From assembly GCA_046563655.1 (NCBI GenBank), contig JAJCTO010000009.1, positions 930,001-994,000 of the forward strand: DNA of 64,000 nucleotides, read 5' to 3'. Position 1 is the stretch's first letter. Every line of letters starts with the position of its first letter. Positions 18,001 to 44,463 of this stretch are shown in pieces. The notes beneath the pieces were generated by a model. The model made no database searches and was not told the DNA's origin. It worked only from the letters and a program-made list of their open reading frames with translations. The stretch comes from Yuukianura sp. NJ FZ-2021. Lineage: Eukaryota. The translations under genes were made by a program, and so were the position numbers.

Positions 18001-19967
18001 TAATTTACTTTCTGTTCATTCTCACATTTGCATGTTCATTCTCACAAAATTTAAGTCGTTTTGCGTCAAAATGGTGCTCGACGTTACCCTGGGTGCCGTA
18101 TTCCAACCCAAGATAAAATCTGAGGCAGAGCGGTTCATTCAGACTTTTAAGTACGCTCTAACCAGATTTAATTGCGATTTATCCACACCAATTAAACTTG
18201 GGTTCCTGTAGTACTTTTCAGGAGGTTTTCAGAAAAGTAACTCATTTTCACCCGGCATCGCTCCGCGTGGAGTTTTTTTGAATGATTTGTTTTGATACAA
18301 ATTTTCATAAAAAAAAGTCACGAGATGAGGGACGACACAGCAAGTGAAAGTGGGTTCCTGTAGCCCTTTTTATGAGGATTTCAAAAATATAGTTGACTTT
18401 TATCCAGCATCGTTCTGGAATGCATTTCTTTTGAATTCTTTTTTCTGAAACATGAATTTTCATAAATAAAGGTAACAAGATGAGAAACGACACAGCAAGT
18501 GAAAGTGGGTTCCTGTAGCACTTTTTATGAGGATTTCAAAAATGTAATTTACTTTCTGTTCATTCTCACATTTGCATGTTCATTCTCACAAAATTTAAGT
18601 CGTTTTGCGTCAAAATGGTGCTCGACATTACCCTGGGTGCCGTATTCCAACCCAAGATAAAATCTGAGGCAGAGCGGTTCATTCAGACTTTTAAGTACGC
18701 TCTAACCAGATTTAATTGCGATTTATCCACACCAATTAAACTTGGGTTCCTGTAGTACTTTTCAGGAGGTTTTCAGAAAAGTAACTCATTTTCACCCGGC
18801 ATCGCTCCGCGTGGAGTTTTTTTGAATGATTTGTTTTGAAACAAATTTTCATAAAAAAAAGTCACGAGATGAGGGACGACACAGCAAGTGAAAGTGGGTT
18901 CCTGTAGCCCTTTTTATGAGGATTTCAAAAATATACTTGACTTTTACCCAGCATCGTTCTGGAATGCATTTCTTTTGAATTCTTTGTTTTGAAACATGAA
19001 TTTTCATAAATAAAGGTAACAAGATGAGAAACGACACAGCAAGTGAAAGTGGGTTCCTGTAGCACTTTTTATGAGGATTTCAAAAATGTAATTTACTTTC
19101 TGTTCATTCTCACATTTGCATGTTCATTCTCACAAAATTTAAGTCGTTTTGCGTCAAAATGGTGCTCGACGTTACCCTGGGTGCCGTATTCCAACCCAAG
19201 ATAAAATCTGAGGCAGAGCGGTTCATTCAGACTTTTAAGTACGCTCTAACCAGATTTAATTGCGATTTATCCACACCAATTAAACTTGGGTTCCTGTAGT
19301 ACTTTTCAGGAGGTTTTCAGAAAAGTAACTCATTTTCACCCGGCATCGCTCCGCGTGGAGTTTTTTTGAATGATTTGTTTTGAAACAAATTTTCATAAAA
19401 CAAAGTCACGAGATGAGGGACGACACAGCAAGTGAAAGTGGGTTCCTGTAGCCCTTTTTATGAGGATTTCAAAAATATACTTGACTTTTACCCAGCATCG
19501 TTCTGGAATGCATTTCTTTTGAATTCTTTGTTTTGAAACATGAATTTTCATAAATAAAGGTAACAAGATGAGAAACGACACAGCAAGTGAAAGTGGGTTC
19601 CTGTAGCACTTTTTATGAGGATTTCAAAAATGTAATTTACTTTCTGTTCATTCTCACATTTGCATGTTCATTCTCACAAATTTAAGTCGTTTTGCGTCAA
19701 AATGGTGCTCGACATTGCCCTGGGTGCCGTATTCCAACCCGAGATAAAATCCGAGGTAGAGCGGTTCATTCAGACTTTTAAGTACGCTCTAACCAGATTT
19801 AATTGCGATTTATCCACACCAATTAAACTTGGGTTCCTGTAGTACTTTTCAGAAGGATTTCAGAAAAGTAACTCCTCTTCACCCGGCATCGCTCCGCGTG
19901 GAGGTTTTTTGAATGATTTGTTTTGAAACAAATTTTTATAAAACAAAGTCACGAGATGAGGGACGAC

Positions 19968-20302
19968 TGTTGGCGTCTGCTAGCACTTTTTAGGCTAGGA
20001 TTTCAAAGATGAGCCGCGGGAGTTTTGAGATGTGGCGAGGTTCATTCTCACAAAATTTAGTTAGTCGGTTTTTGCGTCTCTGAGGCAGACGGAGGTTTGT
20101 TGTATAGACTTTGTTTGTGACGAATAAACATATTTAATATATTTATCCACACCGATGTAGTTGGGTTCCTGTGGTACTTGTTTGGAGGTCATTTGGGTCT
20201 GAGAAGTAACTCATTTTCAGAGAGTAGTCTGGTGCGGAGCGGCAGTTTTTTTGAATGATTTGTTTTCAAATTTTCATAGCGTCACGAGATGAGGGCGTTA
20301 CA
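19968..20302. other. Mosaic of solo-LTR and satellite sequence (probable consensus artefact of the 22870 solo LTR)
   Basis: Same TGTTGGCGTC...GGGCGTTACA ends and CGAC flanks as 22870-23207, but the interior alternates LTR and satellite patches. Confidence 0.8.
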
Positions 20303-22869
20303 CGACACAGCAAGTGAAAGTGGGTTGCTGTAGCCCTTTTTATGAGGATTTCAAAAATATACTTGACTTTTACCCAGCATCGTTCTGGAATGCATTTCTT
20401 TTGAATTCTTTGTTTTGAAACATGAATTTTCATAAATAAAGGTAACAAGATGAGAAACGACACAGCAAGTGAAAGTGGGTTCCTGTAGCACTTTTTATGA
20501 GGATTTCAAAAATGTAATTTACTTTCCTGTTCATTCTCACATTTGCATGTTCATTCTCACAAATTTAAGTCGTTTTGCGTCAAAATGGTGCTCGACATTG
20601 CCCTGGGTGCCATGTACCAACCCAAGATAATATTCGAGACAGAGCGGTTCATTCAGACTTTTAAGTACGCTCTAACCAGATTTAATTGCGATTTATCCAC
20701 ACCAATTAAACTTGGGTTCCTGTAGTACTTTTCAGGATGTTTTCAGAAAAGTAACTCATTTTCACCCGGCATCGCTCCGTGTGGAGTTTTTTTGAATGAT
20801 TTGTTTTGAAACAAATTTTCATAAAAAATAGTCACGAGATGAGGGACGACACAGCAAGTGAAAGTGGGTTCCTGTAGCACTTTTTATGAGGATTTCAAAA
20901 ATGTAATTTACTTTAGGTTCATTCTCACATTTGCATGTTCATTCTCACAAATTTAAGTCGTTTTGCGTCAAAATGGTGCTCGACATTACCCTGGGTGCCG
21001 TATTCCAACCCAAGATAAAATCTGAGGCAGAGCGGTTCATTCAGACTTTTAAGTACGCTCTAACCAGATTTAATTGCGATCTATCCACGCCAATTAAACT
21101 TGTGTTCCTGTATTACTTTTCAGGAGGATTTCAGAAAAGTAACTCCTTTTCACACGGCATCGCTCCGCGTGGAGGTTTTTTGAATGATTTGTTTTGAAAC
21201 AAATTTTCATAAAACAAAGTCACGAGATGAGGGACGACACAGCAAGTGAAAGTGGGTTCCTGTAGCCCTTTTTATGAGGATTTCAAAAATATACTTGACT
21301 TTTACCCAGCATCGTTCTGGAATGCATTTCTTTTGAATTCTTTGTTTTGAAACATGAATTTTCATAAATAAAGGTAACAAGATGAGAAACGACACAGCAA
21401 GTGAAAGTGGGTTCCTGTAGCACTTTTTATGAGGATTTCAAAAATGTAATTTACTTTCTGTTCATTCTCACATTTGCATGTTCATTCTCACAAAATTTAA
21501 GTCGTTTTGCGTCAAAATGGTGCTCGACGTTACCCTGGGTGCCGTATTCCAACCCAAGATAAAATCTGAGGCAGAGCGGTTCATTCAGACTTTTAAGTAC
21601 GCTCTAACCAGATTTAATTGCGATTTATCCACACCAATTAAACTTGGGTTCCTGTAGTACTTTTCAGGAGGTTTTCAGAAAAGTAAGTCATTTTCACCAG
21701 GCATCGCTCCGCGTGGAGTTTTTTTGAATGATTTGTTTTGAAACAAATTTTCATTAAAAAAAGTCACGAGATGAGGGACGACACAGCAAGTGAAAGTGGG
21801 TTCCTGTAGCCCTTTTTATGAGGATTTCAAAAATATACTTGACTTTTACCCAGCATCGTTCTGGAATGCATTTCTTTTGAATTCTTTGTTTTGAAACATG
21901 AATTTTCATAAATAAAGGTAACAAGATGAGAAACGACACAGCAAGTGAAAGTGGGTTCCTGTAGCACTTTTTATGAGGATTTCAAAAATGTAATTTACTT
22001 TCTGTTCATTCTCACATTTGCATGTTCATTCTCACAAAATTTAAGTCGTTTTGCGTCAAAATGGTGCTCGACATTACCCTGGGTGCCGTATTCCAACCCA
22101 AGATAAAATCTGAGGCAGAGCGGTTCATTCAGACTTTTAAGTACGCTCTAACCAGATTTAATTGCGATCTATCCACGGCAATTAAACTTGTGTTCCTGTA
22201 GTACTTTTCAGGAGGATTTCAGAAAAGTAACTCCTTTTCACCCGGCATCACTCCGCGTGGAGGTTTTTTGAATGATTTGTTTTGAAACAAATTTTCATAA
22301 AAAAAAGTCACGAGATGAGGGACGACACAGCAAGTGAAAGTGGGTTCCTGTAGCCCTTTTTATGAGGATTTCAAAAATATAGTTGACTTTTATCCAGCAT
22401 CGTTCTGGAATGCATTTCTTTTGAATTCTTTTTTCTGAAACATGAATTTTCATAAATAAAGGTAACAAGATGAGAAACGACACAGCAAGTGAAAGTGGGT
22501 TCCTGTAGCACTTTTTATGAGGATTTCAAAAATGTAATTTACTTTCTGTTCATTCTCACATTTGCATGTTCATTCTCACAAATTTAAGTTGTTTTGCGTC
22601 AAAATGGTGCTCGACATTACCCTGGGTGCCGTATTCCAACCCAAGATAAAATCTGAGGCAGAGCGGTTCATTCAGACTTTTAAGTACGCTCTAACCAGAT
22701 TTAATTGCGATCTATCCACGCCAATTAAACTTGTGTTCCTGTAGTACTTTTCAGGAGGATTTCAGAAAAGTAACTCCTCTTCACCCGGCATCGCTCCGCG
22801 TGGAGGTTTTTTGAATGATTTGTTTTGAAACAAATTTTTATAAAACAAAGTCACGAGATGAGGGACGAC

Positions 22870-23207
22870 TGTTGGCGTCTGCTACTCCGGGGATTAGTTA
22901 GGCTAGGATGCGGAGATGAGCCGCGGGAGTTTTGAGATGTGGCGAGGTAGAGAGAGAGAGAGATTCAGTTTAGGTTTTAGTTAGTCGGTTTTTGGTCTCT
23001 GCGTGAGACGGAGGTTTGTTGTATATATTTTGTTTGTGACGAATAAATATATTTTATATATTTATTCGCCGATGTAGTTGTGAGCAGTGGTGATTGTTTG
23101 GGGTCATTTGGGTCTGAGAGTCTGCGGACTCAGAGAGTAGTCTGGTGCGGAGCGGCAGTGTTTGCTCCAGTTGTGCTTTCAGTTGTTTAGCGTCGTAGGG
23201 CGTTACA
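22870..23207. mobile_element. Solo LTR (338 bp) inserted in a satellite monomer
   Basis: TG...CA termini, 4-bp target duplication CGAC (22866-22869 and 23208-23211), internal AATAAA, no coding region. The uninterrupted monomer reads GAGGGACGACACAGC. Confidence 0.85.
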
Positions 23208-26200
23208 CGACACAGCAAGTGAAAGTGGGTTGCTGTAGCCCTTTTTATGAGGATTTCAAAAATATACTTGACTTTTACCCAGCATCGTTCTGGAATGCAT
23301 TTCTTTTGAATTCTTTGTTTTGAAACATGAATTTTCATAAATAAAGGTAACAAGATGAGAAACGACACAGCAAGTGAAAGTGGGTTCCTGTAGCACTTTT
23401 TATGAGGATTTCAAAAATGTAATTTACTTCCTGTTCATTCTCACATTTGCATGTTCATTCTCACAAATTTAAGTCGTTTTGCGTCAAAATGGTGCTCGAC
23501 ATTGCCCTGGGTGCCATGTACCAACCCAAGATAATATTCGAGACAGAGCGGTTCATTCAGACTTTTAAGTACGCTCTAACCAGATTTAATTGCGATTTAT
23601 CCACACCAATTAAACTTGGGTTCCTGTAGTACTTTTCAGGATGTTTTCAGAAAAGTAACTCATTTTCACCCGGCATCGCTCCGCGTGGAGTTTTTTTGAA
23701 TGATTTGTTTTGAAACAAATTTTCATAAAAAAAGTCACGAGATGAGGGACGACACAGCAAGTGAAAGTGGGTTCCTGTAGCACTTTTTATGAGGATTTCA
23801 AAAATGTAATTTACTTTCGGTTCATTCTCACATTTGCATGTTCATTCTCACAAATTTAAGTCGTTTTGCGTCAAAATGGTGCTCGACATTACCCTGGGTG
23901 CCGTATTCCAACCCAAGATAAAATCTGAGGCAGAGCGGTTCATTCAGACTTTTAAGTACGCTCTAACCAGATTTAATTGCGATCTATCCACGCCAATTAA
24001 ACTTGTGTTCCTGTATTACTTTTCAGGAGGATTTCAGAAAAGTAACTCCTTTTCACACGGCATCGCTCCGCGTGGAGGTTTTTTGAATGATTTGTTTTGA
24101 AACAAATTTTCATAAAACAAAGTCACGAGATGAGGGACGACACAGCAAGTGAAAGTGGGTTCCTGTAGCCCTTTTTATGAGGATTTCAAAAATATAGTTG
24201 ACTTTTATCCAGCATCGTTCTGGAATGCATTTCTTTTGAATTCTTTTTTCTGAAACATGAATTTTCATAAATAAAGGGAACAAGATGAGAAACGACACAG
24301 CAAGTGAAAGTGGGTTCCTGTAGCACTTTTTATGAGGATTTCAAAAATGTAATTTACTTTCTGTTCATTCTCACATTTGCATGTTCATTCTCACAAAATT
24401 TAAGTCGTTTTGCGTCAAAATGGTGCTCGACGTTACCCTGGGTGCCGTATTCCAACCCAAGATAAAATCTGAGGCAGAGCGGTTCATTCAGACTTTTAAG
24501 TACGCTCTAACCAGATTTAATTGCGATTTATCCACACCAATTAAACTTGGGTTCCTGTAGTACTTTTCAGGAGGTTTTCAGAAAAGTAAGTCATTTTCAC
24601 CAGGCATCGCTCCGCGTGGAGTTTTTTTGAATGATTTGTTTTGAAACAAATTTTCATTAAAAAAAGTCACGAGATGAGGGACGACACAGCAAGTGAAAGT
24701 GGGTTCCTGTAGCCCTTTTTATGAGGATTTCAAAAATATACTTGACTTTTACCCAGCATCGTTCTGGAATGCATTTCTTTTGAATTCTTTGTTTTGAAAC
24801 ATGAATTTTCATAAATAAAGGTAACAAGATGAGAAACGACACAGCAAGTGAAAGTGGGTTCCTGTAGCACTTTTTATGAGGATTTCAAAAATGTAATTTA
24901 CTTCCTGTTCATTCTCACATTTGCATGTTCATTCTCACAAATTTAAGTCGTTTTGCGTCAAAATGGTGCTCGACATTGCCCTGGGTGCCGTATTCCAACC
25001 CAAGATAAAATCTGAGGCAGAGCGGTTCATTCAGACTTTTAAGTACGCTCTAACCAGATTTAATTGCGATCTATCCACGGCAATTAAACTTGTGTTCCTG
25101 TAGTACTTTTCAGGAGGATTTCAGAAAAGTAACTCATTTTCACCCGGCATCGCTCCGTGTGGAGTTTTTTTGAATGATTTGTTTTGAAACAAATTTTCAT
25201 AAAAAATAGTCACGAGATGAGGGACGACACAGCAAGTGAAAGTGGGTTCCTGTAGCACTTTTTATGAGGATTTCAAAAATGTAATTTACTTTCGGTTCAT
25301 TCTCACATTTGCATGTTCATTCTCACAAATTTAAGTCGTTTTGCGTCAAAATGGTGCTCGACATTACCCTGGGTGCCGTATTCCAACCCAAGATAAAATC
25401 TGAGGCAGAGCGGTTCATTCAGACTTTTAAGTACGCTCTAACCAGATTTAATTGCGATCTATCCACGCCAATTAAACTTGTGTTCCTGTATTACTTTTCA
25501 GGAGGATTTCAGAAAAGTAACTCCTTTTCACACGGCATCGCTCCGCGTGGAGGTTTTTTGAATGATTTGTTTTGAAACAAATTTTCATAAAACAAAGTCA
25601 CGAGATGAGGGACGACACAGCAAGTGAAAGTGGGTTCCTGTAGCCCTTTTTATGAGGATTTCAAAAATATAGTTGACTTTTATCCAGCATCGTTCTGGAA
25701 TGCATTTCTTTTGAATTCTTTTTTCTGAAACATGAATTTTCATAAATAAAGGGAACAAGATGAGAAACGACACAGCAAGTGAAAGTGGGTTCCTGTAGCA
25801 CTTTTTATGAGGATTTCAAAAATGTAATTTACTTTCTGTTCATTCTCACATTTGCATGTTCATTCTCACAAAATTTAAGTCGTTTTGCGTCAAAATGGTG
25901 CTCGACGTTACCCTGGGTGCCGTATTCCAACCCAAGATAAAATCTGAGGCAGAGCGGTTCATTCAGACTTTTAAGTACGCTCTAACCAGATTTAATTGCG
26001 ATTTATCCACACCAATTAAACTTGGGTTCCTGTAGTACTTTTCAGGAGGTTTTCAGAAAAGTAAGTCATTTTCACCAGGCATCGCTCCGCGTGGAGTTTT
26101 TTTGAATGATTTGTTTTGAAACAAATTTTCATAAAAAATAGTCACGAGATGAGGGACGACACAGCAAGTGAAAGTGGGTTCCTGTAGCCCTTTTTATGAG

Positions 26201-29200
26201 GATTTCAAAAATATACTTGACTTTTACCCAGCATCGTTCAGGAATGCATTTCTTTTGAATTCTTTGTTTTGAAACATGAATTTTCATAAATAAAGGTAAC
26301 AAGATGAGAAACGACACAGCAAGTGAAAGTGGGTTCCTGTAGCACTTTTTATGAGGATTTCAAAAATGTAATTTACTTTCTGTTCATTCTCACATTTGCA
26401 TGTTCATTCTCACAAAATTTAAGTCGTTTTGCGTCAAAATGGTGCTCGACGTTACCCTGGGTGCCGTATTCCAACCCAAGATAAAATCTGAGGCAGAGCG
26501 GTTCATTCAGACTTTTAAGTACGCTCTAACCAGATTTAATTGCGATTTATCCACACCAATTAAACTTGGGTTCCTGTAGTACTTTTCAGGAGGTTTTCAG
26601 AAAAGTAACTCATTTTCACCCGGCATCGCTCCGCGTGGAGTTTTTTTGAATGATTTGTTTTGATACAAATTTTCATAAAAAAAGTCACGAGATGAGGGAC
26701 GACACAGCAAGTGAAAGTGGGTTCCTGTAGCCCTTTTTATGAGGATTTCAAAAATATAGTTGACTTTTATCCAGCATCGTTCTGGAATGCATTTCTTTTG
26801 AATTCTTTTTTCTGAAACATGAATTTTCATAAATAAAGGTAACAAGATGAGAAACGACACAGCAAGTGACAGAGGGTTCCTGTAGCACTTTTTATGAGGA
26901 TTTCAAAAATGTAATTTACTTTCTGTTCATTCTCACATTTGCATGTTCATTCTCACAAATTTAAGTTGTTTTGCGTCAAAATGGTGCTCGACATTACCCT
27001 GGGTGCCGTATTCCAACCCAAGATAAAATCTGAGGCAGAGCGGTTCATTCAGACTTTTAAGTACGCTCTAACCAGATTTAATTGCGATCTATCCACGCCA
27101 ATTAAACTTGTGTTCCTGTATTACTTTTCAGGAGGATTTCAGAAAAGTAACTCCTTTTCACACGGCATCGCTCCGCGTGGAGGTTTTTTGAATGATTTGT
27201 TTTGAAACAAATTTTCATAAAACAAAGTCACGAGATGAGGGACGACACAGCAAGTGAAAGTGGGTTCCTGTAGCCCTTTTTATGAGGATTTCAAAAATAT
27301 AGTTGACTTTTATCCAGCATCGTTCTGGAATGCATTTCTTTTGAATTCTTTGTTTTGAAACATGAATTTTCATAAATAAAGGTAACAAGATGAGAAACGA
27401 CACAGCAAGTGAAAGTGGGTTCCTGTAGCACTTTTTATGAGGATTTCAAAAATGTAATTTACTTTCTGTTCATTCTCACATTTGCATGTTCATTCTCACA
27501 AAATTTAAGTCGTTTTGCGTCAAAATGGTGCTCGACGTTACCCTGGGTGCCGTATTCCAACCCAAGATAAAATCTGAGGCAGAGCGGTTCATTCAGACTT
27601 TTAAGTACGCTCTAACCAGATTTAATTGCGATTTATCCACACCAATTAAACTTGGGTTCCTGTAGTACTTTTCAGGAGGTTTTCAGAAAAGTAACTCATT
27701 TTCACCAGGCATCGCTCCGCGTGGAGTTTTTTTGAATGATTTGTTTTGAAACAAATTTTCATAAAAAAAGTCACGAGATGAGGGACGACACAGCAAGTGA
27801 AAGTGGGTTCCTGTAGCCCTTTTTATGAGGATTTCAAAAATATACTTGACTTTTACCCAGCATCGTTCAGGAATGCACTTCTTTTGAATTCTTTGTTCTG
27901 AAACATGAATTTTCATAAATAAAGGTAACAAGATGAGAAACGACACAGCAAGTGAAAGTGGGTTCCTGTAGCACTTTTTATGAGGATTTCAAAAATGTAA
28001 TTTACTTTCTGTTCATTCTCACAAATTTAAGTCGTTTTGCGTCAAAATGGTGCTCGACATTGCCCTGGGTGCCATATACCAACACCAGATAATATTCGAG
28101 ACAGAGCGGTCCATTCAGACTTTTAAGTACGCTCTAACCAGATTTAATTGCAATTTATCCACACCAATTAAACTTGGGTTCCTGTAGTACTTTTCAGAAG
28201 GATTTCAGAAAAGTAACTCCTTTTCACCCGGCATCGCTCCGCGTGGAGGTTTTTTGAATGATTTGTCTTGAAACAAATTTTCATAAAAAAAAGTCACGAG
28301 ATGAGGGACGACACAGCAAGTGAAAGTGGGTTCCTGTAGCCCTTTTTATGAGGATTTCAAAAATATAGTTGACTCTTATCCAGCATCGTTCCGGAATGCA
28401 CTTCTTTTGAATTCTTTGTTCTGAAACATGAATTTTCATAAATAAAGGTAACAAGATGAGAAACGACACAGCAAGTGAAAGTGGGTTCCTGTAGCACTTT
28501 TTATGAGGATTTCAAAAATGTAATTTACTTTCTGTTCATTCTCACAAATTTAAGTCGTTTTGCGTCAAAATGGTGCTCGACATTGCCCTGGGTGCCATAT
28601 ACCAACACCAGATAATATTCGAGACAGAGCGGTCCATTCAGACTTTTAAGTACGCTCTAACCAGATTTAATTGCAATTTATCCACACCAATTAAACTTGG
28701 GTTCCTGTAGTACTTTTCAGAAGGATTTCAGAAAAGTAACTCCTTTTCACCCGGCATCGCTCCGCGTGGAGGTTTTTTGAATGATTTGTCTTGAAACAAA
28801 TTTTCATAAAAAAAAGTCACGAGATGAGGGACGACACAGCAAGTGAAAGTGGGTTCCTGTAGCCCCTTTTATGAGGATTTCAAAAATATAGTTGACTCTT
28901 ATCCAGCATCGTTCCGGAATGCACTTCTTTTGAATTCTTTGTTCTGAAACATGAATTTTCATAAATAAAGGTAACAAGATGAGAAACGACACAGCAAGTG
29001 AAAGTGGGTTCCTGTAGCACTTTTTATGAGGATTTCAAAAATGTAATTTACTTTCTGTTCATTCTCACATTTGCATGTTCATTCTCACAAATTTAAGTCG
29101 TTTTGCGTCAAAATGGTGCTCGACATTGCCCTGGGTGCCATATACCAACACCAGATAATATTCGAGACAGAGCGGTCCATTCAGACTTTTAAGTACGCTC

Positions 29201-30215
29201 TAACCAGATTTAATTGCAATTTATCCACACCAATTAAACTTGGGTTCCAGTAGTACTTTTCAGAAGGATTTCAGAAAAGTAACTCCTTTTCACCCGGCAT
29301 CGCTCCGCGTGGAGGTTTTTTGAATGATTTGTCTTGAAACAAATTTTCATAAAAAAAGTCACGAGATGAGAGTAGTAATCTTGATTTAGCCCGTGAAGCA
29401 GGAGACGGGACTTTCCATCTCAGTTTTGGTAGCTGAAACATGCTTTTTTGGAGGGTGTGGTTTCATTGGGATTTTGGAGTTGAGGATTCTGTGGATGCAT
29501 CCCCCACACCCCTTTCCCACCATGATAGATTTCCACACACAAAAAATGAGACGGAGCTTTGTCTTTGTCGCTACTTTGTCAAAGGTTAGAAAATATTCTA
29601 TTTAAAAAACAAAGAAAGAATTTTGACATGATACATCTCCACACCAACCTAACGTTGCCTTTGTCGGTGTTTGTCCGCAAAGAATGGAAAATGTTTAATT
29701 TAAAAAAAAAACAGAATTTTGACCTAATGATACATTTCATACAGAAAAAGTTGAAATGACAATGTAATTTTTTAGGGAAAAAAAATTTGTTCTGGGTAAA
29801 CCGCTATTTTAAAAAAAAAATATGTATTATTTTTGAGGTAAGTGAAAAATATAAATAATCATTGTAAGTTGTATGACAGTTTACATTTTATGTATGTGTT
29901 TCTATGCTGGCTTTTGTCTGTTGTTGTAATGTGTGTGAAGAAAGGCGAGAATCTTCACATTAAAAATAATGGGTCTCCCATTAGTCTTGAAAAGTCAAAA
30001 ACAATGCATCTTGTGTCTTGACATACGATGTCAAAGTTGACACTTTGTGATCTAAGCATACGCTGCTATGGTTTAGAAAAAATAATGACATACTGCATCT
30101 GTGCAGTTTCTAAATGCTTGTAAGTGAGAAGCTAAGTAAAAACATATAGCAATAAAAAGTGTTGGGAATCCTAACTGAAAGATGTCTAGAATAAAAGTAT
30201 GATCAGTCTAGAAAA

Positions 30216-30751
30216 ATGGAAACCTTGTCTACATACCATAATTTTAGTTTAAAAAATTTTGAAACACGTTTTCCCAAGGGACATGAAGTCAACGTGTTTT
30301 TACAAAAAAACGTAAAAGTGTTTGTAAAAGAATCTGAAGACGGTGTAGCTGCAGATCTTATTCAAAGAACGCCAACGTTCGCCAGCATTCTTAAAAAGTA
30401 AGTTTTTTTCGAAATTCTAAGGTTAAGTATTTGTGTGAAAACTCAAAAGTTTTGGTTTTACTTATAATGTTTTCTGTTTGATTAAAATTGTTTAGCCCTC
30501 GACATATTAGGAAGCGAGTTCTTAAAATGATGACAGCAATGGGGTGGATTCAGGGTCAAGGAATTGGAGTGAGCGGGAATGGAAGCTGTATATGTTTATT
30601 ATGTTGTAGTTAGGTTGAGCTTATGCTGATATTTTAGTTCATATTTTGAATTTGTAAACAGCAGGTAGATGAGGACTTAAGAAATTTTCAAAACAGGAGG
30701 GGCTTTGGAGCCAAGAAGGAGGAACGTGTGGAATACTACAACTATAATTAG
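30216..30751 (+). CDS. Small spliced gene with a G-patch-like motif (exon structure partly uncertain)
   Basis: Exon 30216-30397 (donor GTAAGT) splices in frame to ..KRVLKMMTAMGWIQGQGIGVSGNG. A downstream segment reads ..NFQNRRGFGAKK. The second splice junction is unresolved. Confidence 0.55.
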
Positions 30752-31234: not shown

Positions 31235-32933
31235 ATGCCCGTGGCAATTTGTTCTTTGTGTAACTACTCAATTGTGGACAATAACCCGGCTTTTGTCCAA
31301 GTTGAGGGGGCACATGCTACCGTTTGGGTAACTGAGTGTTACCACGTATTCCACTGGTAAGTTATATTCTTGTAATAAGCTTAATAGAAATTATGTTTTT
31401 ACAACAAAATAATAACAAGTAATATTTATATTTTTTTGCAGGCGATGTCTGATGAAAAAAATAGTTGCGGTCAACAACATTTTGAATGTTGACCGGGAAC
31501 ACCGAAGGTATTAAACTGAGATTGATTTGTACCAGATTAGGTTTATGTGTAATAAATTAAGTGGAGTTGATGAAATTTAAAAAAAAATTTAGCACACCAT
31601 GTCCGTTTCCGGCTCCTGCTCCATCATGCGGTGCCGCAATCTTATCTGTGGGTCACACCATCAACGGATTTCGGATAATGTTGAATTTTGGATATGGGGA
31701 CTATTTGGTGACGGGGTAAATACAAAAATAGGAATTATGTGTAATGTCACAATAATACATTTGTTGACTTCTTTTCTTTTAGTCAAGCTATGAATGCCGT
31801 GACTTCTGCAATGCACTTGACGTGCAGAAGAATTCAAGATCTAATGGCAAAGTTGGATGCGTAAGTTGAAGTCTGGTTACTATTACTCGTAAAAATTTAA
31901 ATTCAACAAATTTTTGTTGGGATATTAGGGAAAGCCAATTAGCTGAGATTACTCGTTTGAAAGCTGATTTGGTTAACTTAAATGGACAGCTTCAAGGGGC
32001 CCACGTTCAGGAGACTCACCTCCGAGAAGAAATTAAAACTGCAATTAGTACCAGGTTACTAAACAAAATTACATTTTCCCTAAATTCTATTAAAACTGTT
32101 GGAGAAAAGAGAATTGTATTTTGTAAATTTTTTAAGGGATGCTCGGATTCTGGAATTAACTAGAAAACACGAGTTGGAGCTTGTGACAATTAAAGCTACA
32201 TTTGCACGATTACTTCAATCAAGGTAAATCTTGCTTTAGTTCAATGCTCATTTTCATAAATTATTACATAACCTAAGGTGGAACTGATTAGTTGATTGAT
32301 TTTTGTTTTAGTAACCTAAGATCGAGTGTGCTGGCCAGTCTGATGAATCAGGGAAACTCTGGGGCAGAGCCGAAACCAACTGCGGCTGAGGCAACAGAAT
32401 TCGGACCAATCACGGTCCCACGTGCTGCTTCCCAGCCGCCATCCCCACCCCCGCCTCCCCTGACTGGTAGGATGATTCTACCTAAGTTGACAGCATGTCC
32501 AAATACGAGTGCTGCCCAAGCCGAGAGGCCACCAGAGCTCGCACAACTACTTACGCTGCCAAATTTGAGCGTACGTCCAGGTTTCAAGCCAGGAGCTTCT
32601 ACGTTCCCACCGATTTATAACAGTGTGAGTTTTGCACACGCTAATTGTGGTCCTAGAGTAAAAAGACCATGGGCTGAAGTCGGTGGGAAGGCTTGGATGT
32701 CCTCGCTTCGTAAGAAGCTGGGGGTGGGTGAGCCAAATTATGAAGCGACACGTCCACCTTCTGCTGCTGCTGGATCTGCTACGGTGGTTGAGAACACCGA
32801 TGATCAGGTTCAGGTTGGGGACGGGAACAAAGAGTTAGTTCCTATGATGTTTCGTTGTACTGACAAGGGTAAGGGAATCCCACCAATCCTAAATAGATAT
32901 GACGAGGGGAGGAGGAAGAGGAGGTTATGGTAA
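31235..32933 (+). CDS. 7-exon RING-H2 finger + coiled-coil + Pro-rich protein (putative E3 ubiquitin ligase)
   Basis: Manually spliced exons 31235-31356, 31442-31507, 31593-31715, 31783-31860, 31929-32054, 32137-32223 and 32312-32933, all GT-AG and in frame. Protein has CSLC...CYHVFHWRC...CPFPAPAPSC, then a heptad-like segment. Confidence 0.85.
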
Positions 32934-33128: not shown

Positions 33129-33557
33129 ATGAGTTTTGCAGATTTACCATTGGAGGTAGAGTTTTTTTTTTCTTTTAAAATAACAGAATCTAAGTTTTGA
33201 CAAGAAGATACGTTGATTTTTTGATATTTTGTTTGAAGGTATTTGAAGTTATTTTGTCATTTCTGGGAAATGACGACCATAAGACAATGAGGTCTGTTTC
33301 GAGAACATGTCAAGAGGCAATTGATTCTGTCGGGATGTGGACTATGTTTCATCCACATCCGTCCACGGTTGAGTTTTACAAAGACAGGAAAATCAAATTT
33401 CTGCAATTATCTTCAACTGCGGAGCCACTTTTACCACCATTGAAGTATCCGCATCTCGTCAAAAGCATTATGTTTTCAGGTCCAGTGAGCCACGACTGTA
33501 TCAGCGAAGCTTTAGAAAAATGTTCAATGGTAAATTCAGTTAAATTTTTATTTTTAA
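33129..33557 (+). pseudogene. 5' part of an F-box/LRR-like gene, interrupted by piggyBac
   Basis: MSFADLPLE|VFEVILSFLGNDDHKTMRSVSRTC is an F-box motif (intron 33156-33238). The frame runs to the TTAA at 33554-33557 and resumes at 49356. Confidence 0.85.
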
Positions 33558-33829
33558 CCTTTTGAGGCCTGTTGACGACTTTTGTCGCAAAAGTTTTGTT
33601 GTCTGGGAGCCGGTTGTCGACTTTAGTTGCAAAATTTTTCAACCTTGACAACCGGCAGACGACTTTTGTAGAAAGTTTGTTTGCTACTCAGGGCCTGTAG
33701 ACGACTTTTGTCGTTTTTTTTTGCAAGACGTTGGGGACGGTTGACGACTATAGTCGTCAGAAGTTTTCTATTTTCCTCAAATCTTTTTGTGTGATTCATT
33801 CACAGTGATTTTTTTTTTGAGGGAAGGCG

Positions 33830-34377
33830 TGAGGGGTTGCAATGCCCCGACGACTGGCACACTGGCCACTCGAACAATAAAGTGGGATGGTGGGACACAC
33901 ACACACGGCTACAAATGATCAATTGATTTATTAGGACTAATTAGATACAGTTACGGTCTGATTTGGCCAAATGTAGAGTCGTTGTGTTGGTGGGGCGTTG
34001 GTCCAGTGCAGCATCAACCAGGTAATGTCCGGTGGGGCTTGTAGAGGTCAACCTTGGGTCACAATTGTAGATCCGGCGTGGTCCAGTGGCCTATCCAAGA
34101 TGGAGGAGACGTGGAGAGAGAGACGGGACAAGATCCGGGCAGAGTGACGGTTGGAGTTGGACTGTGTGGAGGAAGAAGTGGACAGTGGTGATGATGATGA
34201 TGACGGGATGCGTGTCCAAGTAGATGGATGATGCAACTTCCCGTGCATCTGATTGGTTCTCTGGTGGTTTTGGTGGTGAGGAAGCGGAGGGAAGTTGTTG
34301 TGCTGCTGCTGGAAGGACGAAGGGGGAGAAGAGGGGAGAGGGAACCAAAAGTGGCTATAGTGGGAATAACCCCCACA
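33830..34377 (-). repeat. 3' LTR of the Gypsy element
   Basis: Direct repeat of 44464-45011; only one mismatch seen by eye (GCAGCATC vs GCAGGATC). Minus-strand AATAAA near 33930. Confidence 0.97.
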
Positions 34378-34429
34378 GGTCCCCAACGACCTGGAGACGT
34401 CCCGGCGACATTTGAAGGCGACGTGGGGG

Positions 34430-35650
34430 TTATTTCGGTGGAGCTGGAGGATCACGGCGTTTTGGGGAATTCTTCCTTGGCGGAGGTGGAGCATTGGCCG
34501 AGTTCAATGCCCACCACCGAGCACGTCTCTGCTGCCGATTCGGAGCTGGTGGATTTGGTGGGACAGGGGGAAAACGTCCTTGTACAGGAGCTGGGGGAGC
34601 TGAGGAAGCTGAAGCTGCTGGAGCTGAAACTACTGGAGCTGGAACTCCTGGAGCTGGGGTTAAATTTGAAGTTGGTGGGGAGTTGAAAGTGAAAGTAACC
34701 GAGGTTGCTGAATTTGGGAGAAGAGTGTAGTATGGGAAGTATCCAGGGGGAATTGATGAAAATGGGAATTGTGAAGTTGCAGAAGTGACAGGAACGGTAA
34801 TTGAAGTTGAAGTGGACGGAATTGGTGAAGCTGAAGAAGTGGCTGGAGAAACTGGACGTGAATTTGGAGAAAGTGGCCGAATTTGGGGAGAAGCTGAGCG
34901 ATTTCGGGGTGGAGCTGGACGAGCGTTGTACGGAGAAGGCCGATTGGAACGAAATTGAGCTCGAACAGGGGGAACAGATTTTGACGAAGTGCTGGGTTCT
35001 GGATTTTGGGGGTTTTGAGGGGTTCGTGGGGACAACGAAACATTTGACATTTTGCGTGTCAAAGCTGTAGGGGAGCTGGATCGCGAACGACCAACTGGGG
35101 GGAGTTTTGGGGGTCCATTTGGAAACTGCAAATCCAGAAGCGAAGGAATCTTCGCAGATCCAAGCCGCTGAGCCTGCAGTTTGGATTTTGGGGCTGGGTC
35201 ACGAGGACGACGAAACGTGGCAGAATCTTGGGACTTGGGGGGAACAACCACGACGACCGAAGCAAGTCTTGGGCGTGGCGCTGGAGGAGGAGCCGAAACC
35301 ATGTCCTGGAGTGACTTTTGGGGGGAATTCGGTTGGAAGCTGCTAGAGCTGGGGGAAAACAACTGCCGATTGAGCTTGTCCGGAGATTTTGGAGGGGAAG
35401 CAGCAGCAAGGGGCATGTCCCAGTCGTCATCGGGAATCCGAGCAATGGCGGGCGTAGAAATTGGAGCAGCAATGACGGTAGGAGACGGAGACGACGAAGA
35501 TGACGAAGATGAAGAAGACCGAGAACGAACATCATCAATCGGAGGCGGGGAGTTCAAAAGGTCATCTTCTGCAGCCAAATCGATCTCGGCAATGCCCTCA
35601 GAAGCGTCATCTCCTTCTTCCATCATGTCATCATCGTGAGGGGGGTCCAT
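34430..35650 (-). CDS. Gypsy third ORF in the env position, 406 aa, disordered Ser/Pro-rich, not env-like
   Basis: Intact ATG ORF between pol and the 3' LTR. Acidic N-terminus, basic C-terminus, no signal peptide or TM segment. The ATG directly follows a TTTTTATATATTTTTAG acceptor. Confidence 0.75.
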   Translation of the reverse strand: MDPPHDDDMMEEGDDASEGIAEIDLAAEDDLLNSPPPIDDVRSRSSSSSSSSSSPSPTVIAAPISTPAIARIPDDDWDMPLAAASPPKSPDKLNRQLFSPSSSSFQPNSPQKSLQDMVSAPPPAPRPRLASVVVVVPPKSQDSATFRRPRDPAPKSKLQAQRLGSAKIPSLLDLQFPNGPPKLPPVGRSRSSSPTALTRKMSNVSLSPRTPQNPQNPEPSTSSKSVPPVRAQFRSNRPSPYNARPAPPRNRSASPQIRPLSPNSRPVSPATSSASPIPSTSTSITVPVTSATSQFPFSSIPPGYFPYYTLLPNSATSVTFTFNSPPTSNLTPAPGVPAPVVSAPAASASSAPPAPVQGRFPPVPPNPPAPNRQQRRARWWALNSANAPPPPRKNSPKRRDPPAPPK

Positions 35651-35694
35651 CTAAAAATATATAAAAAGAGCAGCATCAGTATTTAATTACTGAG

Positions 35695-38604
35695 TCAGCG
35701 CTTCTTTGGCTTCGCAAGGCGGGAAATGCAAGACAGAGCTTTAGTGTAAGCCGCGCGTTTCGGACGACTAGAAATCGGGGTTTTTACGCTGGCAGGGGCG
35801 CAAAATACGGGGATTTCACTCGCAACGGGATGCAGGGTATCCTGGGCGGGTAAAATTGGTGGAATTAGGATTTCTGGGTCACGGCTTTGGTTTTGGTCAT
35901 TTAAGTCAACATTAGGGGGGTCAGAATTTTGGTTTGACGCTACGGGAAGCGTAAGAGGGCCATTTTGCTCAGTTGGAATTGGCAATTTTGGTAAGTTAGA
36001 GGGCAAATCAGGGTCAACAACTGGAGGGGGGACAAAATCGTTATCAGACGACTCAGAGGAGCTACTGTCTGCATCAGACCTGTCATAAACACGCTGATTG
36101 TAGGGTTTAAGGCGCTGAACGTTCACGACAGTCTCGTGAGGCTGCCGAGGGGGAACAGAAGTAATTCGAACAGTGCCGTTATGGAGGACGTCTATGACTT
36201 TGTAAGGGCCAATCCATTTCTTCGTAAATTTGCCGACACGACCTTTTTTCCGCTGAAAGTTCCTGAGCAGAACTTTCATACCAACAACGTAAGTCGGGAA
36301 ACGGATCTGTAACTGGGCTCGAACTCTGAGAAGCTGCTGCTCACGGGACAGTTCGTGGGCTAAGTTATTCGCAACAAATAATCGGTCAAGGGCATCGTCA
36401 GGCTCTAAATATTGCTGGTGAAGGGGAAACAGCCTATCTACCGGCAAAACCGGCTCCCTACCAAAGACCAGAAAATAAGGAGAAAAATTAGTGACACGAT
36501 GTACTGAACAATTAATGGAAAATACCGCCCTGGGGAGATGTAGATCCCAATCCTTGTGGTTTTCACTTACGAATTTGGCGATTACTGACTTTACCGTGCC
36601 GTTATGTCTTTCACAGACGCCGTTAGACTTGGGATGATAGGAAGTCGTGGATCTGTGCTCAATGGCGTGGAGGGAAAGGAAATCTTCAAATTCGTCGGAA
36701 AGGAAAACCGTACCACGGTCTGACAGAATGATTTTGGGAATGCCGTGGCGAAACAGGACGTGTTTGTTAAGTACTTTGATCGCTTGAGCAGAATCTGCTG
36801 CGGGAACTGGCCAGGCTTCTACGTAACGGGTATGGAGATTAATTACTGTCAGAATGTACTTGTTACGTCTTGCTGTAACTGGGAATGGGCCTAAGTAGTC
36901 TAGGGCAATGGTGTGGAATGGAATGGCGGGAACGTCAAGACCAGCGCTATTTGGCGGGAGAGCAAAATTCCGTCTATTATGGATCTGACACAAGTGGCAC
37001 GACGTGACAAATTTCACCACATCGCGATACATCCGGGGCCAATAAAACCTGGATCGTAGAAGATGCCAAGACTTGTGTAAGCCGAGGTGGCTAAGGGAGT
37101 CGTTATGTACGGATTCCATTGACGATTTTCGTAGGGATTTCGGGAGACAAAGACGCCAGAGATTGCCAAATTCCGAGTAGTTCATCCGGTACAAAATTCC
37201 ATCTCGCAGACTGTATTCTCGCAATTTCTTGGGTTCAGGCAAATTATGGGAAGCACCAGCTTGTTCTGCTTTCAAATACTCAATTACAGGAAGCCATTCT
37301 GGCTCTTTAAGCTGAAGATCTTTCAGTTTTGCATCTCTAACACTTCGTGGGGATTCCGGGGAAACCGCTAAGGCCAAAAGATGATGTTCAATGGCCAAAT
37401 GGTCTGTGTCAGAGGGGGCTGGGTCAACTGGGTTACGGGAAAGGGGATCAGCATCGGTGTGAACACGACCACTCTTATGAACCACAGTAAAATCATAAGG
37501 TTGGAGGGCTAAAGACCAACGGGAAATTTGGCCATAGGGGTCTTTAAATTTTAGCATGTCACAAAGAGAATGGTGGTCAGTGACAACTTTAAAATGACGG
37601 CCGTATAAATACGGTCGAAATTTTTCCACAGCCCAAACAAAAGCCTTCATTTCCAATTGGGGGGTTCCAAATTTGGATTCGGAGGGGGAAACCGCTCTAG
37701 AAGCATACGCTACCACTCTCTCTTTTCCGTCCTGAATTTGGCAAAGGGTCGCTCCAAAACCGAGCCCAGACGCATCACAATGCACGGACGTTTCGGCTTC
37801 TTCATCGGGGAACGCAAGGACAGGGGGAGATGTTAATTTGTCTTTAAGCGTCTGAAACGCTGTTTCGGCTTCCGGGGTCCAATGGAACGGGGTACCACGC
37901 TTCCCAGCAACAATAAGATGTAGTGGACGGGCAATTTCTGCAAAACCCTCGATAAATCGGCGATAGTAACTGCAAAGACCAATGAAGGAACAGACACCTC
38001 GAACAGTCGTGGGAACGGGGAATTCACGAACTGCTTTTGTTTTGTTGGGGTCAACTGCAATACCATCTCTGGAAACAATATGGCCAAGGAATTTCAGGGA
38101 ATCTTCGCCAAAGTTACACTTTTTGGGTTTAAGACTGAGACCAGCTCGTCTAAGGGCACAAAAAATTTGGGCTAAGTGATCCAAATGCTCTTCAAAAGTT
38201 CGGGAGTAGCAAACCACATCGTCTAAATAAACGAGTGCTATGGACCACTTTAAACGACCTAAGACATTGTCAATTAGGCGTTGCCACGTCGCTGGAGCAT
38301 TTGTTAGACCAAAGGGCATTACAACGAACTCATATTGTCCGTCGGGGGTAACAAAACTGGTCTTTTCTCGGTCCTCAGGTTCTACCTCAACCTGGTAATA
38401 CGCTTGATCACAATCCATGGAGGAAAAATACTTGGCGCCATTAAGTCTGTCTAGGGTATCATCAATTCGGGGGAGGGGGTAAGAATCTTTCCGAGTCACT
38501 GCGTTGACTTTACGAAAGTCAACACAAAACCGCCAACTTTCGGTCGGGCTTTTTGACCAGAAGGACTGGGGAACACCAAGGGCTATCGCTCGGAGTAATA
38601 GCAT
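35695..38604 (-). CDS. pol: Pol: reverse transcriptase, RNase H, integrase
   Basis: WRFCVDFRKVN, MPFGLTNAP, YLDD; HCDASG...TDH; H-H-C-C zinc finger, DYLGP, SDRG, NGVCERHNG, WIGPYKV. Confidence 0.97.
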   Translation of the reverse strand: MLLLRAIALGVPQSFWSKSPTESWRFCVDFRKVNAVTRKDSYPLPRIDDTLDRLNGAKYFSSMDCDQAYYQVEVEPEDREKTSFVTPDGQYEFVVMPFGLTNAPATWQRLIDNVLGRLKWSIALVYLDDVVCYSRTFEEHLDHLAQIFCALRRAGLSLKPKKCNFGEDSLKFLGHIVSRDGIAVDPNKTKAVREFPVPTTVRGVCSFIGLCSYYRRFIEGFAEIARPLHLIVAGKRGTPFHWTPEAETAFQTLKDKLTSPPVLAFPDEEAETSVHCDASGLGFGATLCQIQDGKERVVAYASRAVSPSESKFGTPQLEMKAFVWAVEKFRPYLYGRHFKVVTDHHSLCDMLKFKDPYGQISRWSLALQPYDFTVVHKSGRVHTDADPLSRNPVDPAPSDTDHLAIEHHLLALAVSPESPRSVRDAKLKDLQLKEPEWLPVIEYLKAEQAGASHNLPEPKKLREYSLRDGILYRMNYSEFGNLWRLCLPKSLRKSSMESVHNDSLSHLGLHKSWHLLRSRFYWPRMYRDVVKFVTSCHLCQIHNRRNFALPPNSAGLDVPAIPFHTIALDYLGPFPVTARRNKYILTVINLHTRYVEAWPVPAADSAQAIKVLNKHVLFRHGIPKIILSDRGTVFLSDEFEDFLSLHAIEHRSTTSYHPKSNGVCERHNGTVKSVIAKFVSENHKDWDLHLPRAVFSINCSVHRVTNFSPYFLVFGREPVLPVDRLFPLHQQYLEPDDALDRLFVANNLAHELSREQQLLRVRAQLQIRFPTYVVGMKVLLRNFQRKKGRVGKFTKKWIGPYKVIDVLHNGTVRITSVPPRQPHETVVNVQRLKPYNQRVYDRSDADSSSSESSDNDFVPPPVVDPDLPSNLPKLPIPTEQNGPLTLPVASNQNSDPPNVDLNDQNQSRDPEILIPPILPAQDTLHPVASEIPVFCAPASVKTPISSRPKRAAYTKALSCISRLAKPKKR

Positions 38605-39997
38605 TGAGATTCAAAAGACGCTCGACTTGGTTTTGAATTTCCCTCCGCTCAGTAAATCCAGTTCTGTGGGGATGGGAAGCAATCGGTTTAGCAGAACCTG
38701 TGTCGATTTTGTGGGTGGTTAGGTGAGTACGGCCAAGGGTAGCGGGATCAAAATTGAAAACATCCAAATTCGCTACAAGAAAATCTTGCATGATTTGGCG
38801 CTGTTCAGGGGTTAGGGAATTTGAAATTTGGAACGCCTCGATCCTCTTTTGCAGTTTCAGGGTTGCTATTTCAGCGTCATCATTAACCGAAAGTCCTAAG
38901 ATCTCGTGCGCTGGGAGGGAAGATTGGGAGGATTTAGAGCTAACATGGTCGAATTCATCAAGGTCACAGAGTACCGAAGACTCTGCGAAGGGTTCGAAGG
39001 TGCCAATAGAGACATTTTGAAGAAGTTTCACAGGCCGGTCACTCAAATTCCACAAGAACGTAACTCCACAGCCATCTTTAAGCGTAGAAATGGAATTCCC
39101 AATGGCAATATGCTTTGCGTGTTGGAGCTCACGACGAGGGGAAACCAAAATGTCACCTGTGAAAGGTAAATCAGTTTTTACACTGACTCGCTTCATTGTT
39201 CTTGGGTTGATGACAATTGACCTGGCCAGTCTCAGGCACGGAGCGGGAGTAGAATTTTGAGATAAATTCGAATTGCTCACGAAGGACGCTTCGGAGTCAA
39301 GTAGGGAAGGGGAAGTTGAAGTATTTTGGGACTGGGATGAATTCAAAGCCATGTCATTAGCTAGAGTATTTGGAATTTTGGGAATGGCCGTACATTTAGG
39401 AGGGATCGACTCTGGTTCTGCTTCCGAAGACTTTGGAATACTGGGGCTATCAGAAACTTCTTCAGTTTCTGACAAAGTTAATTTGTTAAGGACAGGGACT
39501 TGGGATTTTGGAATACAAACATACTCATTTCTGAGGTCTGTACACGGGAGTTCACCTTTTACAAGGCGCTCATTCGCGGGATCCAAAAGAAAATGTTGGG
39601 AACGGAGGAAATCTGAGCCCAAAACGATCTCATTTGAAAGATGCTGGAAAATGTAAAATGGGTATTGGAAGGAGACGCCAGCAATTGAGAAAGTGATCAT
39701 TGTAGTTTGGGGGGAACCACAACGAACGTAAGAACCAAAAGAAAGTTTGACACGAACAGGTTGAACATCAACCGCTTGGGAAACAATATTTGGGAATCTC
39801 CTTAGAAAATCAGGGTGGACACAACAAAGAGAAGCACCTGTATCGCACAGGACTCGAAGAGTCGTAGAACCAAAGACAACATCGGTATGGAAAGTGGAGG
39901 GGGGTGGAGTCAATTCCAGAAATGAACTTTGCAGCTGAGATTCCCGAAGGAAACTCGGAATCATGACTTGGGGACTTGGGTGGGGGTTCAAAATCAA
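38519..39997 (-). CDS. pol: Pol N-terminal part: aspartic protease, spacer, start of RT (frameshifted on both sides)
   Basis: LCDTGAS active site and IVLGSDFL. SDSPWCSPVLLVKKPD joins the next ORF after a 1-nt insertion near 38540. Confidence 0.92.
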   Translation of the reverse strand: MILNPHPSPQVMIPSFLRESQLQSSFLELTPPPSTFHTDVVFGSTTLRVLCDTGASLCCVHPDFLRRFPNIVSQAVDVQPVRVKLSFGSYVRCGSPQTTMITFSIAGVSFQYPFYIFQHLSNEIVLGSDFLRSQHFLLDPANERLVKGELPCTDLRNEYVCIPKSQVPVLNKLTLSETEEVSDSPSIPKSSEAEPESIPPKCTAIPKIPNTLANDMALNSSQSQNTSTSPSLLDSEASFVSNSNLSQNSTPAPCLRLARSIVINPRTMKRVSVKTDLPFTGDILVSPRRELQHAKHIAIGNSISTLKDGCGVTFLWNLSDRPVKLLQNVSIGTFEPFAESSVLCDLDEFDHVSSKSSQSSLPAHEILGLSVNDDAEIATLKLQKRIEAFQISNSLTPEQRQIMQDFLVANLDVFNFDPATLGRTHLTTHKIDTGSAKPIASHPHRTGFTERREIQNQVERLLNLNAITPSDSPWCSPVLLVKKPDRKLAVLC

Positions 39998-42062: not shown

Positions 42063-42147
42063 TTTTGGGAATTCTTATAGACGGCGTCTCGGATCAACAC
42101 GGGGTTCGGTTTCAAACACTAACCAGCCTTGGGCATTGGCAAAAGCT

Positions 42148-42489: not shown

Positions 42490-42835
42490 TTGCAGGGACT
42501 TCAAAATAACTTAAATGCTTTTCAGCACTTAAGCTTTACTCAAGAAAATGTAGGAGAAGGGATACCAAAAAGAAAACGACAATCCGTTGGACAATGACAC
42601 CAATCGTAGCAATGACAACGATCAAGACAATGTAGAGGAATGGGAGAGTACATCGTCTGTTTTCTGGGCTGGGCAGGGACTTTCTAGAAATACTTGAAAT
42701 AAATGGAATTATTAAATAGATAATGAATATGAATATTAATATTTATAACCTTAAATCTAGAAAAAAGAAAGAAATGGGAATTGGAAAATAAATATGGTAT
42801 GTGGAGTTAGCTACTGTCTAGTGGCTAGGATTTCA

Positions 42836-44461: not shown

Positions 44462-44463
44462 CC

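Follow-up and report, generated by a model that had tools for sequence, protein, structure and literature searches.

Organization of the locus

We analysed a 64,000-nucleotide stretch of the genome assembly of Yuukianura sp. NJ FZ-2021 (GCA_046563655.1, contig JAJCTO010000009.1, positions 930,001 to 994,000 of the forward strand), hereafter the window, in which position 1 is the first base. The left part of the window is occupied by a satellite array that stops in the middle of a unit at position 29370, and the next six bases match the end motif of a class of large, virus-like transposable elements, the Mavericks or Polintons. Further to the right lies a module of genes for capsid formation and integration. 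We propose that a Maverick integrated into the satellite with its left terminus at position 29371 and that this capsid/integrase module belongs to the same element, a reading to which we assign a probability of roughly 0.65. Between the terminus and the module is an arm of intron-bearing accessory genes, one of which is split by a piggyBac transposon that itself carries further insertions. A separate, palindromic element follows the integrase gene (Table 1).

The exon frames of the accessory genes were taken from a list of open reading frames (ORFs), and their splice sites were placed by eye. Homologues of the major capsid protein were collected at E-values up to 0.001; some of these sequences are labelled 'F54H12.2-like' in arthropods. 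An alignment of 30 of the homologues led to 80 related metagenome loci and to one viral contig (L081), with which the gene order of the window was compared. No relative was recovered when viral contigs were scanned with the capsid protein or the integrase singly; L081 came from the alignment scan. Structure models were graded by the predicted local distance difference test (pLDDT). LRR and LTR stand for leucine-rich repeat and long terminal repeat, respectively.

Table 1. Features of the window, from left to right. Counts of loci refer to the 80 related metagenome loci.
Feature	Coordinates	Strand	Details
Satellite array	1..29370	+	~543-bp units made of 155-bp and 388-bp parts; 54 full units
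GATGAG, final satellite bases	29365..29370	+	Putative left copy of a 5-6-bp target duplication
Non-coding left end of putative Maverick	29371..30215	+	845 bp; GC 0.34; AGTAGT at 29371-29376
Small three-exon G-patch gene	30216..30751	+	Pfam G-patch E 1.9e-6, 28.1 bits (cut-off 22), in exon ORF 30482-30610
Gene of about seven exons with RING-like zinc finger start, coiled-coil middle and proline-rich last exon	31236..32933	+	
F-box/LRR gene, 5' part	33130..33556	+	Tiny first exon, intron, F-box exon
piggyBac	33557..49353	+	TTAA on each side; ends CCTTTTGAGGCCTGTT; sits in F-box/LRR coding exon
Ty3/gypsy LTR retrotransposon inside piggyBac	33830..45011	-	550-bp LTRs, 99.8% identical; GGCG flanks
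AT-rich inverted-repeat element, ~1.74 kb	45964..47706	.	Splits piggyBac transposase ORF (45449-45931 / 47849-48445)
F-box/LRR gene, LRR part	49358..50537	+	Restarts directly past piggyBac; weak Pfam LRR_4 match
Small conserved accessory ORF	50793..51161	+	Converges on protease gene; syntenic in 3/80 loci (L001, L002, L004)
Adenain-like (clan CE) cysteine protease	51341..51805	-	Found in 57/80 loci
Major capsid protein, double jelly-roll fold	51799..53157	-	150 homologues; model pLDDT 84.7
Small protein between penton and capsid genes	53258..53644	-	Position of vertebrate PW; in 26/80 loci, always there
Penton (minor capsid) protein	53655..54539	-	Model pLDDT 74.2; found in 50/80 loci
Three ORFs upstream of penton	54904..56484	-	54904-55389, 55377-55967, 56038-56484
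rve-type integrase	56454..57527	+	Divergent from capsid genes; Pfam rve E 1.2e-14
ORF downstream of integrase	57528..58064	+	No relatives found
Capsid-only mini-Maverick-like palindrome, separate element	58164..64000	.	Inverted arms 58164-59704 and 62464-64000

The satellite array ends exactly at AGTAGT

The edge of the array can be placed to the base. The 11-mer CACGAGATGAG occurs 55 times in the window, exclusively on the plus strand, and was never found in 100 shuffled sequences. It continues as GGACGACACAGCAAGT (GGACGAC...) in 51 of the 55 copies and as one of two other variants in 3; in a single copy, directly after which the array stops, it is followed by AGTAGTAATCTTGATT, at 29371. Likewise, AGTAGTAATC comes after the 11-mer solely at 29371. 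Across the junction (29360-29380) the text reads ...GTCACGAGATGAG up to the last satellite base and AGTAGTAATCTTGATTTAGCCC... from there on. The original prediction for this region, made from the letters alone, held that the satellite breaks exactly at an AGTAGT at 29371, and both the junction text and the continuation counts (51 of 55 versus 1 of 55) confirm it.

AGTAGT is found 20 times on the plus strand among the 34,630 positions of the non-satellite part of the window, a frequency of ~6e-4 per position, so that the probability of a chance match at the one position set by the satellite break is itself ~6e-4. On the plus strand of 29300-33600 the copy at the junction is the only one, and AGAGAG, or (AG)3, the other form of the conserved Maverick end motif, is absent. 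As given in the accessible text of Barreat and Katzourakis 2021 (PMC8097293), vertebrate Mavericks most commonly end in 5'-(AGT)2//(ACT)2-3', accompanied by 6-bp target duplications, and the end motif is credited there to Kapitonov and Jurka 2006. The earlier use of AGTAGT and a 6-bp duplication as Maverick traits agrees with that description, and a complete relative of the element, L006, also starts with AGTAGTA (see below). GATGAG, with which the satellite ends, would then represent the left copy of a putative target duplication of 5-6 bp, the partner of which would be found beyond the window.

The sequence past the junction also contains repeats. Two imperfect direct repeats (29521-29625 and 29627-29721) are 71% identical over 108 columns, with an alignment score of 56, compared with 16.9 +/- 2.6 and at most 25 for 300 shuffled sequences; Tandem Repeats Finder, run with the default score, does not list them. 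They had been described as ~95-bp repeats; the repeats are real, but the unit is ~105 bp long. No Rfam families or tRNAs were found in 29000-64000 or in the whole window. The stretch 29371-33556 is present in five sequencing runs from two studies (word shares 0.62, 0.54, 0.54, 0.53 and 0.16), which speaks to its presence in the samples only.

On the satellite side, the last three units (27772-29370) have mean identities of 92.4, 92.1 and 95.2% to the other units, compared with 96.3-98.3% for interior units. Because these units are more diverged, we place the junction in a less homogenised edge of the array and not in pristine array. Such divergence fits both an old natural edge and an array that became an edge on being split. 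A similarity search detected no satellite sequence in 29371-64000, hence no resumption of the array at GGACGACACAGC within the window. Irregular units of 333, 388, 492, 523, 550, 765 and 884 bp also occur within the array, those of 333, 388, 550, 765 and 884 bp being located between 16.4 and 25.7 kb (16400-25700).

A Maverick morphogenesis module

The protease, capsid, penton and integrase genes at 51.3-58.1 kb constitute a genuine Maverick morphogenesis module. In Foldseek, the model of the major capsid protein matches the capsid proteins of iridovirus, Sputnik, Paramecium bursaria Chlorella virus 1 (PBCV-1) and mavirus, with E-values of 1e-14 to 1e-11 and TM-scores of 0.5-0.6. The best matches of the penton model are the penton proteins of mavirus and Sputnik (E 7e-8) and the adenovirus penton base (E 1e-5), at low TM-scores of 0.31-0.39. 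Searched singly, the protease of the window has no Pfam match. A profile built from 12 homologues matches African swine fever virus S273R (E 2.3e-5) and adenovirus protease (E 6.6e-5 to 1.2e-4), and residues H55, Q104 and C111, which we take to be the catalytic residues by analogy with the adenain family, are invariant across the alignment.

The integrase gene adjoins the capsid module in 34 of the 80 related loci. Among the three ORFs upstream of the penton gene, 55377-55967 is syntenic in 5 loci and 56038-56484 in 9, and no match was found for 54904-55389. The gap that separates the penton gene from the ORF upstream of it contains a 25/50-bp tandem repeat (54622-54791; core AACGCTGGA...TCCA), which may be a regulatory array.

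Related elements keep an F-box gene beside the capsid module

The closest capsid relatives preserve the gene order of the window well beyond the protease. L001, with a capsid protein 59% identical to that of the window, is collinear with it through integrase, two ORFs, penton, small protein, capsid, protease, the small ORF and the F-box gene, the last of these a 491-amino-acid (aa) ORF in the same orientation (Pfam F-box E 6.6e-5). L002, also at 59% capsid identity, has the order of the window from the capsid gene onwards and a 493-aa F-box/LRR ORF. In L012, whose capsid protein is 45% identical to that of the window and whose DNA is 85% identical to that of L001, the 5' part of the F-box gene adjoins the protease. 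The F-box and LRR parts, split in the window, are a single ORF in L001 and L002, and in these two loci as in the window the gene starts with a tiny exon and an intron after it. The F-box exon of the window matches the Pfam F-box at E 3.6e-4 (20.8 bits, cut-off 20.5), and its LRR part is 26% identical to the L002 ORF over 338 aa (E 1.7e-16). At the DNA level, L001 and L002 are 79.5% identical across the capsid, protease and small-ORF region and 69.5% identical across the F-box gene.

Because L001 and L002, and for the 5' part L012, keep the two together, we consider that the F-box gene travels with the capsid module. The synteny therefore carries the element leftwards through the small ORF and the F-box/LRR gene to 33130, within 3.8 kb of the junction. 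Past the F-box gene, L001 (7318-8719) and L002 (4409-5666) share a gene of four Cys-rich modules, which is probably a multi-exon zinc-finger cargo gene. The modules (CxxC...H...CxxC) are consecutive and lie in different frames of one strand, and the similarity between the two loci is seen at the protein level only.

A different arrangement is found in L004 (5211-8409). About 0.9 kb beyond its protease and the small converging ORF there is a second integrase, accompanied by the two ORFs usually found ahead of the penton gene, which points to two elements arranged tail to head or to a permuted order. No end motif was found between the two parts of L004, and an ACTACT at L004:5672 does not look like an element end.

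Terminal inverted repeats were detected in only two relatives, L006 and L081 (29 metagenome loci of at least 5 kb; all-against-all comparison of the 81 loci). L006 (contig Ga0210040_10001316) is a complete element of 15.2 kb, with a capsid protein 44% identical to that of the window. Its inverted ends are ~190 bp long and 97.9% identical; the element starts AGTAGTATAG..., both ends read AGTAGTATAGTATAC..., and CTAGT flanks it on both sides. It encodes an integrase, penton, small protein, capsid protein and protease (Peptidase_C5 E 3.5e-4, narrowly missing the cut-off), as well as an A32-type ATPase (Pox_A32 E 1e-5). A 1314-aa ORF of L006 has look-alikes with DNA_pol_B_2 in the ESM Atlas (score 0.98), and no sequence match in Pfam or the PDB. 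L081 is a 12.3-kb viral contig (1-12321) with 280-bp inverted ends, starting TTGATC..., at both contig ends. Genes for integrase, penton, small protein, capsid protein and protease are all present, and the contig may be a free linear genome of this capsid lineage.

The accessory arm

All accessory genes are encoded on the plus strand, with gaps of ~200-500 bp all the way from the conserved ORF to the G-patch gene, and their GC content (0.35-0.37) is slightly above that of the core (0.32). The 3.76 kb from the start of the F-box gene (33130) to the junction consist of the RING-like and G-patch genes and the non-coding end. The RING-like matches of the gene at 31236-32933 are weak (E 0.002-0.02) and fall under the Pfam cut-offs. 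Compared by tblastx and blastn with L001, L002 and L004, 29371-33556 gave no match. The F-box/LRR exon and the last exon of the RING-like gene have no homologue in a search of 5.8 billion proteins that relies on shared 5-residue words, a result that is weak evidence but suits fast-evolving cargo better than conserved host genes.

Nested and neighbouring elements

The F-box exon is interrupted at TTAA 33553-33556 by the piggyBac element, which has the TTAA duplication, short inverted ends and DDE_Tnp_1_7 transposase of its class. The transposase is in three pieces (45449-45931, 47849-48445 and 48473-49090, with Pfam E-values of 5.8e-40, 2.9e-10 and 1.4e-14). Within piggyBac, the Ty3/gypsy retrotransposon has Pfam matches for gag, protease, RVT_1, RNase H and integrase, in the expected gag-protease-reverse transcriptase-RNase H-integrase order. 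Its LTRs differ by about one mismatch, as in a very young element. The gypsy integrase is separated from the LTR at 33830-34379 by a 406-aa minus-strand ORF (34430-35650), which has no Pfam match and may be an env-like or accessory retroelement gene.

The original prediction placed all genes from 29.4 to 58 kb inside a Maverick integrated at the junction. The AGTAGT end, the capsid module and the synteny to 33130 support the integration, but the genes of the piggyBac nest are not those of the Maverick. The statement is true only topologically, since 15.8 kb, half of the span, are piggyBac with the gypsy element and the small inverted-repeat element.

To the right of the integrase, the palindrome has arms of 1.54 kb or more, whose match to each other continues up to the end of the window. 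The arms are composed of 83-bp and 114-bp tandem subrepeats bearing a recurrent GATTGGTCGAC-type word and have no similarity to the sequence from 29371 onward. The 2.76-kb core encodes a capsid-like gene on the minus strand (59837-61316, in the overlapping frames 59837-60445 and 60270-61316), which is 24% identical to the capsid protein at 51799-53157 (E 8e-23) and matches 78 of the 80 loci. The core also contains a lysine-rich ORF (61639-62325).

Origin of the junction

If 29371 is its left terminus, the Maverick would have been inserted in the satellite by its integrase with a 5-6-bp duplication, and the leftmost 3.8 kb would be part of the same element as the capsid module. From the terminus inwards, the element would comprise an 845-bp non-coding end with subterminal repeats, then a 6.2-kb accessory arm of intron-bearing genes on one strand (G-patch, RING-like/coiled-coil, F-box/LRR and the small conserved ORF), then the converging capsid module (protease, major capsid protein, small protein, penton and three ORFs), and then the divergent integrase. 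The piggyBac element would have entered the F-box/LRR exon later, and the Ty3/gypsy and small inverted-repeat elements would have entered piggyBac after that. The capsid-only mini-Maverick would have been placed just past the integrase. Genes for a protein-primed DNA polymerase (pPolB) and a packaging ATPase, the right inverted end and the second target copy would be expected beyond base 64000.

The dimensions of the locus can be compared with those of known elements. The capsid/integrase module is now 22 kb from the junction and was 6.2 kb from it before the nested insertions. From 29371 to 58163, less the piggyBac nest, there are 12,992 bp, which leaves ~5-6 kb for replication genes within known Maverick sizes. 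Adding the polymerase (3.9 kb in L006), the ATPase and an end gives ~19 kb, a normal size for a Maverick.

Several observations weigh against this reading. The 64-kb window contains no inverted copy of the sequence from 29371 onward (which would end ...GATTACTACT), and Pfam searches of its ORFs of at least 50 aa outside the gypsy element found no pPolB or packaging-ATPase domain, the element running off the window. The AG-type end motif is present in one of the two complete relatives, L006, and not in L081, which begins TTGATC. The contig tails of L001 and L002 have no ACTACT, CTCTCT or TGTGTGT, and the termini of these relatives were not located. L001, L002 and L012 derive from one metagenome, and shared host synteny among related animals is conceivable; we favour a mobile unit because the outer genes differ and the three copies are distinct. 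The lack of matches for the G-patch and RING-like genes in the related loci and the divergence of the last satellite units also count against it. An element that lacks pPolB and ends at ~58.1 kb was also considered and is ruled out, as 57500-58200 contains no inverted copy of anything in 29371-57400.

The alternative that survives best, although we regard it as unlikely, is that 29371 is the end of a different, truncated or older Maverick, or that the capsid element stops somewhere between 29371 and the F-box gene; the leftmost genes would then not be its cargo. The G-patch and RING-like genes have a match in none of the 80 related loci, L001 and L002 bear the Cys-rich gene past their F-box gene, and a second Maverick-like element (58164-64000) lies nearby. 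Against such a boundary, no further AGTAGT or AGAGAG is found on the plus strand of 29371-33600, the packing of plus-strand genes is continuous from the conserved ORF to the G-patch gene, and no repeat or composition break was seen within 29371-33556.

We consider it less probable still that the junction is a natural edge between the array and host DNA, at which AGTAGT would be coincidental, the G-patch, RING-like and F-box genes would be host genes, and the Maverick would start nearer the protease. The diverged final three units are as expected of a natural, old edge, the genes are cellular in type and have several exons, and neither an inverted partner nor resumed satellite is present in the window. 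However, a natural edge would have to meet AGTAGT by chance at one fixed position, and it leaves aside that the F-box gene and small ORF accompany the capsid module in L001 and L002, with the 5' part of the F-box gene also in L012, and that the searches gave no conserved homologue for the F-box/LRR or RING exons. Another event altogether, such as a transposon of a different class, a deletion or a segmental rearrangement joining the satellite to this region, is very improbable: only one side of the event is visible and the region has been hit by many insertions, but the first six bases match the specific Maverick end motif, with a Maverick adjoining, and no transposase or typical end of another transposon class was found in 29371-33556.

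Implications of a probable F-box-bearing Maverick

The junction itself is ordinary, as Mavericks, AGTAGT ends and insertion into repeats are well known. The novelty is modest and is located in the accessory arm with its F-box/LRR gene. If a Maverick did insert at 29371, one end of an element of ~19 kb or more is fixed, and the locus shows a nested build-up, with a Maverick in the satellite, piggyBac in the Maverick, gypsy and an inverted-repeat element in piggyBac, and a mini-Maverick beside them.

More tentatively, this Maverick lineage might retain, within the mobile element itself, a cassette of genes that contain introns and are of ubiquitin-system and RNA-processing types. The cassette would consist of an F-box/LRR adaptor, conserved among relatives with no more than 59% capsid identity, and of lineage-specific RING-like, G-patch or multi-zinc-finger genes. 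If true, a virus-like element would bring its own adaptor of the SKP1-cullin-F-box (SCF) type to redirect host protein degradation. An F-box/LRR gene that moves with the capsid module makes the idea that Mavericks bear ubiquitin-ligase adaptors testable. In the literature searched, which covers subscription journals thinly, we found no paper on F-box cargo in Mavericks, judged by titles or the opening lines of abstracts, and nothing relevant on Polintons in Collembola.

Comparison with known Mavericks and viruses

Vertebrate Mavericks, as described in the accessible text of PMC8097293, have accessory regions that flank two core modules and an intact size of 12.7-24.6 kb. The element in the window resembles them in its 5'-(AGT)2 end, its accessory region beside the core, a compatible size range and a module of integrase, minor capsid protein, small protein (PW), major capsid protein and protease. 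It differs from that description in several ways. The integrase of the window points away from the capsid genes, the accessory genes contain introns, and two extra conserved ORFs, on the same strand as the capsid genes, are located upstream of penton; the polymerase, ATPase, second inverted end and 6-bp duplication are not visible in the window.

Among the relatives, L006 shares with the window the capsid lineage, the AGTAGTA start and the set of integrase, penton, small protein, capsid and protease genes, to which it adds inverted ends and a short duplication. In contrast to the window, L006 encodes its integrase on the same strand as the capsid genes, lacks an F-box arm and is flanked by a duplication of 5 bp; its ends have no sequence in common with the window end after the first 7 bases. 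L001, L002 and L012 are the closest capsid relatives and share the gene order through the protease and small ORF to the F-box/LRR gene. Where the window has RING-like and G-patch genes, L001 and L002 hold the four-module Cys-rich gene.

The accessory arm has a counterpart in nematode Mavericks. According to the accessible text of Widen et al. (10.1101/2022.07.12.499685), these carry a 2-5-kb cargo arm beside an inverted end, with intron-bearing, poorly conserved genes of higher GC content, and the arm of the window is likewise intron-bearing, higher in GC, low in conservation and placed at the putative end. The cargo itself is different. In the nematode elements, as described there, WASP proteases and KRMA kinases occupy the interval from the end to the integrase; in the window, F-box/LRR, RING-like and G-patch genes fill that from the putative end to the protease. 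Mavirus, Sputnik and adenoviruses are free viruses, not integrated in an animal satellite, and their identity to the proteins of the window is 8-12%; even so, the element shares with them the folds of the major capsid and penton proteins and an adenain-type protease.

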